From: a virus
Taxonomy: Duplodnaviria; Heunggongvirae; Uroviricota; Caudoviricetes
Direction: 5' to 3' (one strand)
Length of the DNA: 4,454 nucleotides
IMG/VR virus record: IMGVR_UViG_2728369553_000002
The notes beneath the pieces were generated by a model. That model saw only the letters and a list, made by a program, of their open reading frames with translations, was not told the origin of the DNA and ran no database searches. This document shows positions 1 to 4,454 of this stretch, piece after piece; position 1 is the stretch's first letter; every line of letters begins with the position of its first letter. The translations under genes and the position numbers were made by a program.

Positions 1-980
1 CCCACCAGCTCACCGGTCTGCGTGGGACGTGCCGGATCGTTGCGAATAAACACCGCTGCGCGGGCGGTACGGCTTGCCGCCAGTTCGTCGGCAGGCGTCT
101 GGGTCTCTTTTTCGTACCCCGCCAGGGTAATGTGCTGCTGGTTAAACTGGTCACCTGCGGTCACCAGTTCTGACAGCGTGCCGATCTTTGCCGTATACAC
201 ATGACCATACAGCTGACGCGCATAGCTCCAGCGACCGCTGGTATCGTTCATCTCGGTCACCAGCGTGTTAACGGAGGCCGTGTCGTTGAACGGCAGGCCG
301 ATATAATCAAACGGCTCATCCGCCATTGCAGCCACCACGCCGGTGAGAACCGGAGCACCCGTTCCGGCGGTACCCGTCGCCACGGCAATCTGTACGCCCG
401 CTGGCAGCACTTCGCCCCCACCAAAGCCGTAGTAATTGAGGCTGACAGGAATTTCATTCCCGCAAAGCCCCTTATGACGCGCGGTCAGTGTGACCACACC
501 TGCCGAAGATGAAGCCGTAAACGGCAGGGCCGGAACGGCATTGATGGCATCTTTGATACTGCTGGCAATCGTCGTGACGTTATCGCCGTTGGTCACCGGA
601 GCCTGCACGCGGGTACGTCCCACATAGACATTCACCGTGCCGCTTTCGGTTGCTTCCCCGGTCACCGTCAGCGTAACCGTTGCCGCCGCGCCTGTGGCTT
701 CCGGAACGGCAATCACATACAGCTCACCAAACGGGTCGGTCTGGCGATAAGCCTCGACCATACGCGCCAGCTGACTTCCCGCACCACAAATCTGGCGTGC
801 ATAGTCTGCCGACGGCATCAGCACCAGACTGTTGGCAACAATCTCTGCACCGTTATTGGCATGACCAATCAGCAGCGATGCTCCGCTGTCCTGTGCAGTA
901 TTCGCAGCCTGGTTATCCATTTCCGCATAAAACAGCGGAACCAGCGTATTCGACGGAATGGTGTTAAAGCTTATCGTCAT
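1..980 (-). CDS. Probable phage tail sheath protein (contractile tail), 5' portion; ORF continues past the window start
   Basis: ATG at 978-980 with Shine-Dalgarno AGGTGA at 987-992 (6-nt spacer). I translated the minus strand by hand from 980 down to position 3 and found no in-frame stop (326 codons, MTISFNTIPSNTLVPLFYAEMDNQ...). Not in the ORF track because it has no stop inside the window. Length of at least 326 aa and position directly after a tail completion gene fit a sheath rather than a tube protein; the family assignment itself is inference. Confidence 0.6.
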   Translation of the reverse strand, partial: MTISFNTIPSNTLVPLFYAEMDNQAANTAQDSGASLLIGHANNGAEIVANSLVLMPSADYARQICGAGSQLARMVEAYRQTDPFGELYVIAVPEATGAAATVTLTVTGEATESGTVNVYVGRTRVQAPVTNGDNVTTIASSIKDAINAVPALPFTASSSAGVVTLTARHKGLCGNEIPVSLNYYGFGGGEVLPAGVQIAVATGTAGTGAPVLTGVVAAMADEPFDYIGLPFNDTASVNTLVTEMNDTSGRWSYARQLYGHVYTAKIGTLSELVTAGDQFNQQHITLAGYEKETQTPADELAASRTARAAVFIRNDPARPTQTGELV

Positions 981-1057
981 CGGTGTTCACCTTTTTATTC
1001 ACGCGCCGGATATCACCCGCTGCTTCACGGCGCAGCCAGTAGTTGTTCTCGTCAACA

Positions 1058-1113
1058 TTTCGCCCTTCGGCGGGCAAAAGGTCGCTGCGGGCAGGGTCAG
1101 GCACTGACCGCCC
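1058..1113 (-). promoter_or_regulatory. Two adjacent stem-loops in the 162-bp intergenic region between the tail completion gene and the sheath gene
   Basis: 1089-1113: GGGCAGGGTCAG / loop GCA / CTGACCGCCC (6-bp perfect core stem plus a 4-bp GGGC/GCCC extension with a 2-nt bulge). 1058-1079: GCCC / loop TTCGGC / GGGC flanked by partly paired TTT/AAA. This is the only sizeable non-coding gap in the operon. Confidence 0.4.
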
Positions 1114-1142
1114 TTTAACAGGTTTCACAAACATGAGGATCC

Positions 1143-1619
1143 TCAGGAAGGAATGGTTATTTCTGTGTGATGTTCGATATCGCCGTCAGGCCCGTTACCT
1201 GGATCGAGATAATCAACATCAATCGCCAGCGTTTGCAGTTCATCCAGACTGTTCAGATCATCCTGCTGGCGGGTATCGTCTTCAGTCAGCTNNNNNNNNN
1301 NTTCCGGGTTCCAGCCCAGCAGGGCCTTAAAGAGCATCTGCCGGACATCGTCCACCACATCATACGAGGCAAACTGACCGCGCTCATCACGCCCGTTACT
1401 CAGTATGACAACCACGGAGAAGCCCTCTTTCAGCTCCTGCCAGTAGTCGGTCTGGCTTTTGTTTTCTCCCGGAGAGTCATCACCCGGTACCACATACGCC
1501 GCCGGGAGTCTCAGCTTTCCGACCTCCGGCAGATTTTTGAACTGTGCCGCGCCTGCCACCCGGTTTTCAAAATACGGGCAGCGGGCACGCAGCGCAGCAA
1601 TAACAGGCGTCAGTTTCAT
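1143..1619 (-). CDS. Phage tail completion/terminator-like protein (Mu gp37 / DUF1834-like), copy 1, interrupted by an N-run
   Basis: 158-aa ORF in the track with XXXX at the 1292-1301 N-run; otherwise near-identical to the intact 186-aa copy at 1979-2539. The N-run stands in for about 94 nt present in copy 2. Start ATG 1617-1619 overlaps the stop of the upstream reading frame (ATGA). Confidence 0.5.
   Translation of the reverse strand: MKLTPVIAALRARCPYFENRVAGAAQFKNLPEVGKLRLPAAYVVPGDDSPGENKSQTDYWQELKEGFSVVVILSNGRDERGQFASYDVVDDVRQMLFKALLGWNPEXXXXLTEDDTRQQDDLNSLDELQTLAIDVDYLDPGNGPDGDIEHHTEITIPS
1292..1301. other. Assembly gap (10 N)
   Basis: Run of N; by comparison with copy 2 it replaces about 94 nt of the tail completion gene. 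Confidence 0.95.
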
Positions 1620-1681
1620 CTGTGTCGTCGCTCCGGCTTCAGTGATTTACGCAATTCCCGCGCCAGAAAATAGCGTGTCCA

Positions 1682-1691
1682 NNNNNNNNNN
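1682..1691. other. Assembly gap (10 N) exactly at the junction between the two repeat copies
   Basis: Sequence before the N-run matches the 3' end of the gp10-like gene (as at 2540-2601); sequence after it matches codon ~41 of the sheath gene (as at 857 onward). Confidence 0.95.
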
Positions 1692-1816
1692 CTGGCATGA
1701 CCAATCAGCAGCGATGCTCCGCTGTCCTGTGCAGTATTCGCCGCCTGGTTATCCATTTCCGCATAAAACAGCGGAACCAGCGTATTCGACGGAATGGTGT
1801 TAAAGCTTATCGTCAT
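1692..1816 (-). pseudogene. Duplicated 5' fragment of the sheath gene (first ~41 codons), truncated at the N-run
   Basis: ATG at 1814-1816 with the same AGGTGA Shine-Dalgarno at 1823-1828; encodes MTISFNTIPSNTLVPLFYAEMDNQAANTAQDSGASLLIGHA, identical to the N-terminus of the 1-980 gene. The track ORF 1616-1816 fuses it across the N-run to the last 21 codons of the gp10-like frame. Confidence 0.55.
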
Positions 1817-1893
1817 CGGTGTTCACCTTTTTATTCACGCGCCGGATATCACCCGCTACTTCACGGCGCAGCCAGTAGTTGTTCTCGTCAACA

Positions 1894-1949
1894 TTTCGCC
1901 CTTCGGCGGGCAAAAGGTCGCCGCGGGCAGGGTCAGGAACTGACCGCCC
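1894..1949 (-). promoter_or_regulatory. Second copy of the intergenic stem-loop pair
   Basis: 1925-1949: GGGCAGGGTCAG / loop GAA / CTGACCGCCC. Stem identical to copy 1; the loop differs by one base (GCA vs GAA). Confidence 0.4.
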
Positions 1950-1978
1950 TTTAACAGGTTTCACAAACATGAGGATCC

Positions 1979-2539
1979 TCAGGAAGGAAGGGTTATTTCG
2001 GTGTGATGTTCGATATCGCCGTCAGGCCCGTTACCGGGCTCGAGATAATCAACATCAATCGCCAGCGTTTGCAGTTCATCCAGACTGTTCAGATCATCCT
2101 GCTGGCGGGTATCGTCTTCAGTCAGCTCGCTGATGACCGAAAAATCGAACTGATAAATCAGCTCATGACGATTCAGATCCAGCAGCGTGCCGCCGTCATA
2201 GGTAATCGGGTTACCGCACGCCTCCGGGTTCCAGCCCAGCAGAGCCTTAAAGAGCATCTGCCGGACATCGTCCACCACATCATACGAGGCAAACTGACCG
2301 CGCTCATCACGCCCGTTACTCAGTATGACAACCACGGAGAAACCCTCTTTCAGCGCCTGCCAGTAGTCGGTCTGGCTTTTGTTTTCTCCCGGAGAATCAT
2401 CACCCGGTACAACATATGCCGCCGGGAGTTTCAGCTTTCCGACCTCCGGCAGATTTTTGAACTGGGCCGCACCTGCAACCCGGTTTTCAAAATACGGACA
2501 GCGGGCACGCAGTGCAGCAATAACAGGCGTCAGTTTCAT
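1979..2539 (-). CDS. Phage tail completion/terminator-like protein (Mu gp37 / DUF1834-like), intact copy
   Basis: 186-aa ORF. N-terminus MKLTPVIAALRARCPYFENRVAGAAQF...LPAAYVVPGDD fits the general pattern I associate with tail completion/terminator proteins. Start ATG 2537-2539 overlaps the gp10-like stop at 2536-2538 (ATGA coupling). Sits between head-completion genes and the sheath. Family assignment is from memory of motifs, not a search. Confidence 0.6.
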   Translation of the reverse strand: MKLTPVIAALRARCPYFENRVAGAAQFKNLPEVGKLKLPAAYVVPGDDSPGENKSQTDYWQALKEGFSVVVILSNGRDERGQFASYDVVDDVRQMLFKALLGWNPEACGNPITYDGGTLLDLNRHELIYQFDFSVISELTEDDTRQQDDLNSLDELQTLAIDVDYLEPGNGPDGDIEHHTEITLPS

Positions 2540-3103
2540 CTGTGTCGTCGCTCCGGCTTCAGTGATTTACGCAATTCCCGCGCCAGAAAATAGCGTGTCC
2601 AGCTGCGGTTCTTTTCAAGCGTTTCCATCATGAAGTTATTACGTGGAGCCAGTCGCCAGCCGCTGCCACCGGATGCACCACGATGATGGCTGCGACGACG
2701 CTTTGCCCCTCGCCTCACGCCATAGAACAAAAAAGCCGGATAAAAATCACCAGTGATACGGCGGTTTCCCTCTCCATTACGCTGGTTAGGGGCTATACGT
2801 GCCATAAAACCAGGGCGATGTTTACTGGCTCTGGGTACCATGTAACCAATCGAACGAGCCAGGCGTCCGGTCTGATAACCGGGGTTTTCACCCGGTGCCG
2901 ACCGCGCACGGCGCATCACCAGCCGACGGGNNNNNNNNNNNNNNNNNNNNNNNNNNNNNNNNNNNNNNNNNNNNNNNNNNNNNNNNNNNNNNNNNNNNNN
3001 NNNNNNNNNNACCAATCGTGACAAACGCCCGCCGGACACGGGCGCGGTTAAAGCGCATCTCCGTGGGCTGCTGAAAATCAACGTGCAAAAAGGAAGTCGC
3101 CAT
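2536..3103 (-). CDS. HK97 gp10-like head-tail joining / virion morphogenesis protein, interrupted by an 80-N gap
   Basis: ATG at 3101-3103 preceded by GGAGG at 3109-3113 (5-nt spacer); N-terminus MATSFLHVDFQQPTEMRFNRARVRRAFVTIG. After the gap the frame ending at stop 2536-2538 encodes ...QTGRLARSIGYMV...DFYPAFLFYGVRRG...APRNNFMMETL, resembling the TG-L-SI ... YA-E-GT ... PF-PA pattern of gp10-family proteins. The two sides are in different frames as written, so true gap length and gene length are unknown. Confidence 0.5.
2931..3010. other. Assembly gap (80 N) inside the gp10-like gene
   Basis: Run of N; reading frame differs across it. Confidence 0.95.
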
Positions 3104-3488
3104 TGCTGCCTCCGTGACTCTGCCTACATTCGCCCAGCTCCGTACACTCCAGCAGCAGAAAGCGCCGCGCTCCGTTCAGATCGCGCTGACGTTTCACCCG
3201 GTACACACTGTCACCGCAGACCACCTCATAATCAGAGGTGATCCCCCGGCGGTAACGAATGGTGATGTAATGGGTGATGGCGTCTCCGGTCTGCGCGGTT
3301 TCCTGCCAGGTGGTGGCACTGGTCTGGATAACCTTCGCCCATGTACTGAACGCAACCGGGTATTGAGGCTCCACGCCAAAGTTATCTGCGGGCATATCCA
3401 CCCGCTGGCGGATCAGGACGCGTTTATTCAGTTCACCGGGGTCCGGCAGAATGTAGGTTGCGCTGGTCTGTGCCTGGCTAATTTTCAT
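3078..3488 (-). CDS. Phage head closure / head-tail adaptor protein (Phage_H_T_join-like)
   Basis: 136-aa ORF. Core WAKVIQTSATTWQETAQTGDAITHYITIRYRRGITSDYEVVCGDSVYRVKRQRDLNGARRFLLLECTEL matches the characteristic adaptor pattern (WA-v ... IRYR ... Y-v ... L-L-C-E). Start ATG 3486-3488 overlaps the connector stop at 3485-3487 (ATGA). Confidence 0.75.
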   Translation of the reverse strand: MKISQAQTSATYILPDPGELNKRVLIRQRVDMPADNFGVEPQYPVAFSTWAKVIQTSATTWQETAQTGDAITHYITIRYRRGITSDYEVVCGDSVYRVKRQRDLNGARRFLLLECTELGECRQSHGGSNGDFLFAR

Positions 3489-3808
3489 TGCGGAAAGTAC
3501 CTGTACGGGCTGACAAGCCAGCCAAAACTCTGCGGCATGTCGAGTTTCTCCACTTCCGTAACCGACGAGCGGTTTTCGTAAAAGTGGCTGATAAGCATCA
3601 GCATCCCAAGACGAATATCATCCGGCAGGTGCAGCCCGTCCGGATCGCTGTCCGGAATGGATTCATCCGGTGCATAGAGCTTCCGGTTCAGATACGTTTC
3701 CGTCCGCTTTTGCGCCGCACAGGCCAGCAGTTGCAGATGGCGGTCATCGGCATCGAAATCCTCATCCAGCCGGAGTTGGGCTTTAATCTCTTCCAGTGTC
3801 AGAAGCAT
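3485..3808 (-). CDS. Phage gp6-like head-tail connector protein
   Basis: MLLTLEEIKAQLRLDEDFDADDRHLQLL... is the typical N-terminus of gp6-like connector proteins. I place the start at ATG 3806-3808 (GAGGG at 3815-3819, 6-nt spacer) rather than the track's upstream ATG at 3812-3814, which has no spacer after the Shine-Dalgarno. Confidence 0.75.
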   Translation of the reverse strand: MLLTLEEIKAQLRLDEDFDADDRHLQLLACAAQKRTETYLNRKLYAPDESIPDSDPDGLHLPDDIRLGMLMLISHFYENRSSVTEVEKLDMPQSFGWLVSPYRYFPQ

Positions 3809-4010
3809 TCTCATCCCTCTTTACTGGCCGTGGCTTTTTCTCTTTTGCCGCTTTACTGCTTTTTGCACTGGTTCCGCGCTCTGCTAACCCGGCCTGAAGT
3901 GCAATCTCCTGCACCCGGGCAGGAAGCGCCCCGTCGTCATACTCACCGGCCCGAATGACCTCAACACGCATACCGTCCGGTGACCATTTAAGATCTTGTT
4001 TCAGGATCAT
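3783..4010 (-). CDS. Hypothetical small protein (75 aa) between the capsid and connector genes; function unknown
   Basis: ATG at 4008-4010 with GGGTGA at 4017-4022 (6-nt spacer). Codon usage looks enterobacterial (CTG, AAA, CCG, GGT, CGT). Acidic N-terminal half and a Lys-rich tail (SAKSSKAAKEKKPRPVKR). Its last ~26 nt overlap the connector start in another frame. I recognise no family. Confidence 0.45.
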   Translation of the reverse strand: MILKQDLKWSPDGMRVEVIRAGEYDDGALPARVQEIALQAGLAERGTSAKSSKAAKEKKPRPVKRDENASDTGRD

Positions 4011-4033
4011 GATTCTTCACCCTTCAGAACAGG

Positions 4034-4051
4034 GGGCGCGGAACCGCGCCC
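4034..4051 (-). promoter_or_regulatory. GC-rich stem-loop just downstream of the capsid stop codon (possible partial terminator or mRNA 3' stabiliser)
   Basis: Perfect inverted repeat GGGCGCGG / AA / CCGCGCCC on the plus strand (8-bp stem, or 7 bp with a 4-nt loop), 9 nt after the capsid stop as read on the minus strand. It is followed on the transcript by CCUGUUCUG, not a clean U-tract. Confidence 0.4.
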
Positions 4052-4059
4052 ATGAGCGA

Positions 4060-4454
4060 TTACTTCTCTGCAATCTTCAGCAGTTTGATGGCCTGCGAAT
4101 CGACCAGCATTCCGCCGGTGCGCTTGGTGGTATAAAAACCGACAAACGGTTTATTGGTGTACGGGTCACGCAGAATGCGGGTGCCGATACGGTCAACGAT
4201 GGTGTAACCCCGTTTGAAGTTACCAAATGCGATGGCTTTCGCATCCGCAGCAATATCCGGCATCTGTTCGTTTTCAGCAATACCGTACCCCAGCAGAGAA
4301 GAAGGCTGCCCCAGTTCCAGCCCCGGACGCCACAGATAGTTACCCTCGTTGTCTTTCAACAGACGAATGGCAAACAGGCTGTTGTTGTTCATCATGAACT
4401 TCGCGCCAGTGCGGTGTGCCTTACGCAGCGTGTAAATCAGTTTGATAATGGCGT
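4060..4454 (-). CDS. Phage major capsid protein, C-terminal portion; ORF continues past the window end
   Basis: Stop TAA at 4060-4062. My translation stays open upstream of the track's Met through the window end (...AIIKLIYTLRKAHRTGAKFMMNNNSLFAIRLL...). C-terminal sequence ...RDPYTNKPFVGFYTTKRTGGMLVDSQAIKLLKIAEK and position immediately upstream of the connector gene fit a major capsid protein. Confidence 0.7.
   Translation of the reverse strand, partial: AIIKLIYTLRKAHRTGAKFMMNNNSLFAIRLLKDNEGNYLWRPGLELGQPSSLLGYGIAENEQMPDIAADAKAIAFGNFKRGYTIVDRIGTRILRDPYTNKPFVGFYTTKRTGGMLVDSQAIKLLKIAEK

Follow-up and report, generated by a model that had tools for sequence, protein, structure and literature searches.

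The window studied here, a stretch of 4454 bp that makes up the entire record LRXV01000150.1 of assembly GCA_001571685.1 (an E. coli draft genome, deposited as isolate), raises the question of why a phage structural gene appears in it twice, in two similar versions placed one after the other. The record is built of four pieces (p1 to p4) separated by three runs of N, and its genes, all on the minus strand, form a myovirus head-neck-tail module according to Pfam and PHROG matches. Positions 857-1681 recur at 1693-2601, with an offset of 836 before the first gap and of 920 after it. From the analysis reported below, the two versions are natural alleles of the same gene, and their side-by-side placement is very probably a scaffolding artefact. 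The elements of the window are the following, A and B designating the two versions.

1-1291, minus strand: piece p1, with the 5' part of the sheath gene, the allele-A DUF2635 gene and the 3' end of the allele-A terminator gene
3-980, minus strand: 5' part of the tail sheath gene in p1 (Pfam/PHROG)
964-1134, minus strand: allele-A DUF2635 gene in p1 (Pfam/PHROG)
1143-1291, minus strand: 3' end of the allele-A tail terminator gene in p1 (Pfam/PHROG)
1292-1301, no strand: first N run, 10 N
1302-1681, minus strand: piece p2, made of the first 318 nt of the terminator gene in its allele-A form (1302-1619) and the final 62 nt of Neck1, the gene upstream
1682-1691, no strand: second N run, 10 N, the presumed false join between allele-A p2 and allele-B p3
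1692-2930, minus strand: piece p3, allele-B path, with a sheath stub, the DUF2635 gene, the full terminator gene and the 3' part of the Neck1 gene
1694-1816, minus strand: first 41 codons of the sheath gene in p3, part of the allele-B path
1800-1970, minus strand: allele-B DUF2635 gene in p3 (Pfam/PHROG)
1979-2539, minus strand: complete allele-B tail terminator gene, 186 aa (PF23840, 92.5 bits)
2536-2930, minus strand: 3' part of the Neck1/tail completion gene in p3 (phrog_879)
2536 to about 3081, minus strand: Neck1/tail completion gene overall (phrog_879), split by 80 N
2931-3010, no strand: third N run, 80 N
3011-4454, minus strand: piece p4, continuation of the allele-B path, with the 5' end of the Neck1 gene, Hc1, Ad1, a small ORF and the 3' end of the major capsid gene
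3078-3488, minus strand: head closure Hc1 gene (Pfam/PHROG)
3485-3814, minus strand: head-tail adaptor Ad1 gene (Pfam/PHROG)
3783-4010, minus strand: small ORF after the capsid gene (phrog_1020)
4060-4395, minus strand: 3' end of the major capsid gene (PF05065)

On sequence grounds, the duplicated gene is a predicted tail terminator (PF23840). Its product matched this family with 92.5 bits (gathering cut-off 27; E = 3.1e-26) over residues 3-135, and orthologues in closed genomes are named “phage tail terminator protein” by the NCBI pipeline. In the window as in all reference loci, the gene sits between Neck1 and sheath, the order being Neck1 (phrog_879), terminator, DUF2635, sheath and tube. 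The initial annotation had called it “tail completion”, a label that belongs to its neighbor: phrog_879 matched 2536-2928 (E = 1e-71) and not the duplicated gene, and in the RefSeq annotation of phage SfI the tail completion label is also carried by the gene upstream of the terminator. A search of the PDB for sequence relatives of the terminator protein gave none at E <= 1. Besides, the best PHROG match of 1979-2539 (minus strand) was phrog_209 (E = 4e-62), labelled “portal protein”; this label looks wrong, as both Pfam PF23840 and the NCBI naming point to a tail terminator.

Two further observations concern the capsid end of the module. The small ORF at 3783-4010 (phrog_1020; 6310-6509 in L030) is called with a length of either 75 or 66 aa, depending on the relative, and is annotated as a frameshifted pseudogene in ECONIH4 and CX21. 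A GC-rich hairpin (GGGCGCGG/CCGCGCCC) occupies 4022-4045 on the minus strand, immediately after the major capsid gene, in the interval that separates the stop of this gene from the small-ORF start at 4010; no U run follows it, and its folding energy is not unusual when compared with shuffled sequences (z = -1.3).

The two copies were then compared base by base. Across the whole repeat, 21 differences were counted over 815 aligned bases. The codon-aware alignment of the terminator coding sequences (1143-1619 against 1979-2539, minus strand) gave 17 differences, 13 synonymous and 4 replacements, where the initial annotation had counted about 16 substitutions and was thus nearly right. The replacements, from copy A to copy B, are R37K, E62A, D167E and I184L. 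These are exactly the four pairs (R/K, E/A, D/E and I/L) that had been reported earlier; they had also been described as all conservative, which does not apply to E/A. Differences caused by errors would be spread randomly over codon positions, whereas the 17 observed here fell 1, 2 and 14 times at the first, second and third position, respectively, so they are not randomly distributed. The Nei-Gojobori estimates were dS = 0.129 and dN = 0.011, that is a dN/dS of 0.089, and the binomial probability of obtaining 4 or fewer replacements among 17 under neutrality was 6.7e-6. For natural allele pairs of the terminator gene, the median pN/pS was 0.10 (range 0-0.31), and the ratio between A and B is typical of such pairs. 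The view that both versions evolved under purifying selection is borne out by these values. Elsewhere in the repeat, three changes separate the DUF2635 copies (1 synonymous, 2 replacements), a single synonymous one was counted in the sheath stub of 41 codons, and the 62-nt Neck1 tail has none.

The way in which the pieces begin and end bears on how the two copies came to lie next to each other. The boundaries of the repeat coincide with N runs: the last base of copy A (1681) and the first of copy B (1692/1693) flank the N run at 1682-1691. When placed on phage SfI, p1 occupies 2145-3435, p2 3530-3909 and p3 3000-4238, while p4 extends from about 4257; p3 therefore overlaps the end of p1 and the whole of p2. 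According to mapping on SfI, on Escherichia phage vB_EcoM-720R4 (hereafter 720R4) and on ECONIH4, the 10 N at 1292-1301 replace 94 nt, which are identical in ECONIH4 and in copy B of the window, and the 80 N at 2931-3010 replace only 19 nt. All four piece ends lie exactly 88 nt past the last variant site (sites 1203, 1593, 2842 and 4366), and all three internal starts lie on a variant site (p2 at 1302, p3 at 1692, equivalent to 856, and p4 at 3011).

This geometry was compared with a k = 89 model, in which a node of a de Bruijn graph is written as the last base of each of its k-mers. Under this model, variant sites are predicted at 2842 (2930 - 88), at window position 3011 and at 4366 (4454 - 88), and 720R4 differs from the window at all three. 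Between 2842 and 2950 (corresponding to window position 3011), 720R4 showed no difference from p3/p4, and none from p4 was aligned past 4366, the alignment ending at 4452, two bases before the scaffold end. The model further predicts 94 shared k-mers between sites 2039 and 2222 and 19 between sites 2842 and 2950, values that equal the two missing lengths. The left scaffold end did not fit the rule, site 89 being invariant in all panel sequences. As for the N counts, 10 and 80 differ from the true gap lengths of 94 and 19; under the graph model, such numbers would have to be ascribed to noisy paired-end estimates or to minimum fillers. From the geometry of the pieces, the assembler was deduced to be Velvet-like and run with k = 89; a literature search on LRXV / GCA_001571685 returned no paper describing the assembly.

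The mismatch between N counts and true gaps also has consequences for the reading frames. The 158-aa ORF of copy A runs through the 10 N, and stays open only by chance, because the difference between 94 nt and 10 N is 84 nt, i.e., 28 codons. Conversely, the 80 N standing for 19 nt shift the Neck1 frame by 61 nt, and the record can therefore yield only a truncated Neck1 of 130 aa.

In the explanation that we favor, the scaffold would stem from a short-read draft of an E. coli isolate whose DNA held two related SfV/SfI-like myovirus prophage haplotypes. In a k = 89 graph, these haplotypes would merge in identical stretches and split into parallel arms at their differences. The scaffolder would then have placed the arms in series, with the sheath and the allele-A arms (p1 and p2) coming first and the full allele-B path (p3 and p4) following, while the shared two-copy nodes would have been skipped and N runs written instead. 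As a result, the sheath 5' end, DUF2635, the terminator and the Neck1 3' end would seem to be duplicated in tandem. It had been suggested earlier that the contig ends of one allele were chained onto the other, and this proposal is strengthened by the N-run boundaries, by the k = 89 geometry and by the absence of the junction from closed genomes. The two terminator versions are ordinary natural alleles under purifying selection. Their product is a conserved structural component, predicted to cap the completed tail tube and sheath and to meet the neck, and recombination among prophages also reshuffles their polymorphisms.

The second haplotype requires a source. The initial annotation had proposed that the source genome or sample held two related prophages or strains, in agreement with the natural character of both alleles and with the existence of closed genomes carrying two such prophages. 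The gene was found at 1200 places in 1076 closed E. coli genomes (about 20% of 5426), with at most 4 per genome. E. coli strain 165 (NZ_CP020509.1) carries one A-like and one B-like prophage at a distance of 377 kb; 13 differences, 11 of which are silent, separate the two terminator genes, and K37R is among the replacements, as in the window. In Shigella flexneri SFBU0723 (CP182557.1), two copies of the module (L003 and L004, at 28-39 kb and 4684-4695 kb) lie on either side of the origin, with about 49 kb between them, and, in contrast to strain 165, have identical terminator genes. Polylysogeny would thus be sufficient to explain the second haplotype, and a second complete prophage is inferred in preference to a contaminating strain. 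That two E. coli strains in a mixed or contaminated culture brought one SfV-like prophage each, before the same scaffolding artefact took place, is possible but rather doubtful. Sequence alone cannot tell this case from polylysogeny and, with such a prophage in about 20% of closed E. coli genomes, two strains could each bring one; nevertheless, the record was deposited as an isolate genome, and closed genomes with two to four copies are so well documented that contamination is not needed. In an exact-protein look-up of a second prophage protein set from the same assembly, no KXL accession appeared among the matches listed (at most 4 per protein).

Some records place this phage outside a chromosome or outside E. 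coli. In E. coli CX04 (NZ_CP081716.1, a record of 37,667 bp, and NZ_CP081713.1), the phage is found both in the chromosome and in a separate phage-sized record, and 13 of the gene places across the collection are on “plasmid” records. These cases suggest that phage DNA, excised or replicating, came out of the assembly as a separate replicon. In Edwardsiella hoshinae NBRC 105699 (L005; NZ_BAUC01000041.1, Hafniaceae), DNA 96.6% identical to p3 was found, a likeness that could reflect either a recent spread of the prophage across genera or an assembly contamination.

That the source chromosome carries a true tandem partial duplication of about 0.9 kb (sheath 5' end, DUF2635, terminator and Neck1 3' end), whose copies have since diverged, is very unlikely. 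The deposited scaffold does present the copies in direct orientation, 836-920 nt apart, with both DUF2635 ORFs intact and the terminator frame of copy A open, though via 10 N. However, the junction consists of an N run without any sequenced novel join, and both ends of the repeat as well as its internal break fall on N runs that obey the k = 89 node geometry. A 243-nt junction query was found, at a coverage of at least 80%, in none of the 5426 closed E. coli genomes, including the 1076 with the gene. The tandem arrangement was also absent from the 9 other contigs that encode the identical allele-B protein, in all of which Neck1, terminator, DUF2635 and sheath are single-copy. Moreover, a recent event predicts identical copies, whereas each copy here matches a different natural lineage, and direct repeats of 800 nt with 97% identity would be expected to be lost fast by recombination. 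It is likewise highly improbable that recombination between two co-resident SfV-like prophages produced a rearranged prophage, with a partial tandem duplication bearing diverged terminator and DUF2635 alleles and with N runs hiding real junctions.

The alleles themselves were traced in other sequences, and at each variant site the A state as well as the B state was recovered from phages or closed E. coli genomes independent of the window. On the A side, p2 is 100% identical to 720R4, and several closed E. coli genomes match 1105-1291 at 100%, among them ECONIH4, CX strains (CX21) and 0H strains. On the B side, p3 shows 2-3 mismatches (99.8% identity) to uninterrupted metagenome and Logan contigs, with 2 to L019 and L020, and p4 matches L020 at 100% identity along 1389 nt. 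The stretch 1-855 of p1 is identical to the B-lineage contigs L019, L020 and L025. Among 16 independent sequences taken as a panel, 18 of the 21 variant sites showed both states. The notion that the 21 differences are sequencing or base-calling errors at low-coverage contig ends of one prophage could draw on the T at 1154, 1164 and 1200, all G-to-T changes near a contig end that were missing from this first panel, but it retains next to no probability given that 1105-1291 matches closed E. coli genomes at 100% with these three T included, that p2 matches 720R4 at 100%, that 14 of the 17 coding differences are at third codon positions (P = 6.7e-6), and that the reconstructed copy-A protein is the commonest natural variant (at least 1000 contigs). 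Sequencing errors were ruled out by the exact matches in independent genomes. Hence the description of the two copies as diverged functional alleles rather than sequencing errors, made initially from the window itself, finds direct support in the exact or near-exact match of each piece and in the third-position bias.

The composition of copy A deserves separate attention, as this copy spans a gap and its parts p1 and p2 could come from more than one haplotype. This is illustrated by ECONIH4, which carries the allele-A states at 1022-1203 and the allele-B states at all 13 sites under p2, and which is otherwise identical to p3 over 2040-2930 and to the compared 290 nt of p4 (3011-3300). When the composite copy-A DNA (end of p1, the 94 nt and p2) was searched in closed genomes, no exact match was obtained and the best identity was 99.3%. 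At residues 37/62/167/184 of the terminator, the following combinations were found.

R-E-D-I: reconstructed copy A, at least 1000 contigs
K-A-D-I: ECONIH4, 504 contigs
R-E-E-L: 720R4-type combination, 8 contigs
K-A-E-L: copy B, 14 contigs

All four left/right combinations of the replacements therefore exist in nature, which indicates that recombination shuffles these sites. The idea that the versions evolved in separate lineages was correct as far as purifying selection on natural alleles is concerned, but is too simple in view of these four combinations.

From these results, the tandem duplication displayed by LRXV01000150.1 would be false. The record also contains a terminator ORF that is truncated, a sheath stub of 41 codons and a Neck1 gene whose frame is broken, and automatic annotation, pangenome counts and duplication scans would accept all of these features as real. 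The geometry also offers a test for such artefacts that requires nothing but the deposited letters: piece ends lie at a constant distance past the last variant, and missing lengths equal the runs of shared k-mers. The biology is ordinary and corresponds to already known allelic variation in a common prophage family; it restates that SfV-like prophages are common in E. coli and often multi-copy, that their structural genes are under purifying selection and that their segments recombine.

The nearest known relatives are the serotype-converting SfV-like phages of Shigella and E. coli. Their terminators (SfI gp11, YP_009147457.1; SfV orf9; SfII; vB_EcoM-720R4, URC09687.1) share 94-100% DNA identity with the window, their genes follow the same order (capsid, Ad1, Hc1, Neck1, terminator, DUF2635 and sheath), and the terminator gene has the same length (561 nt, 186 aa). 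In each of these phage records the terminator is single-copy, two copies being present only in the draft scaffold. Strain 165 and SFBU0723 do possess two copies of the module per genome, but at separate loci and not adjacent to each other. In short-read drafts, scaffolders of the Velvet type linearize the arms formed by haplotypes or repeats, which leads to false segmental duplications beside N gaps. Although the assembler and k were deduced here from geometry and the N counts differ from the true gaps, the window resembles such linearized-arm artefacts in its N-bounded duplicates, in pieces that end at the last variant plus (k-1), and in pieces that start on variants.
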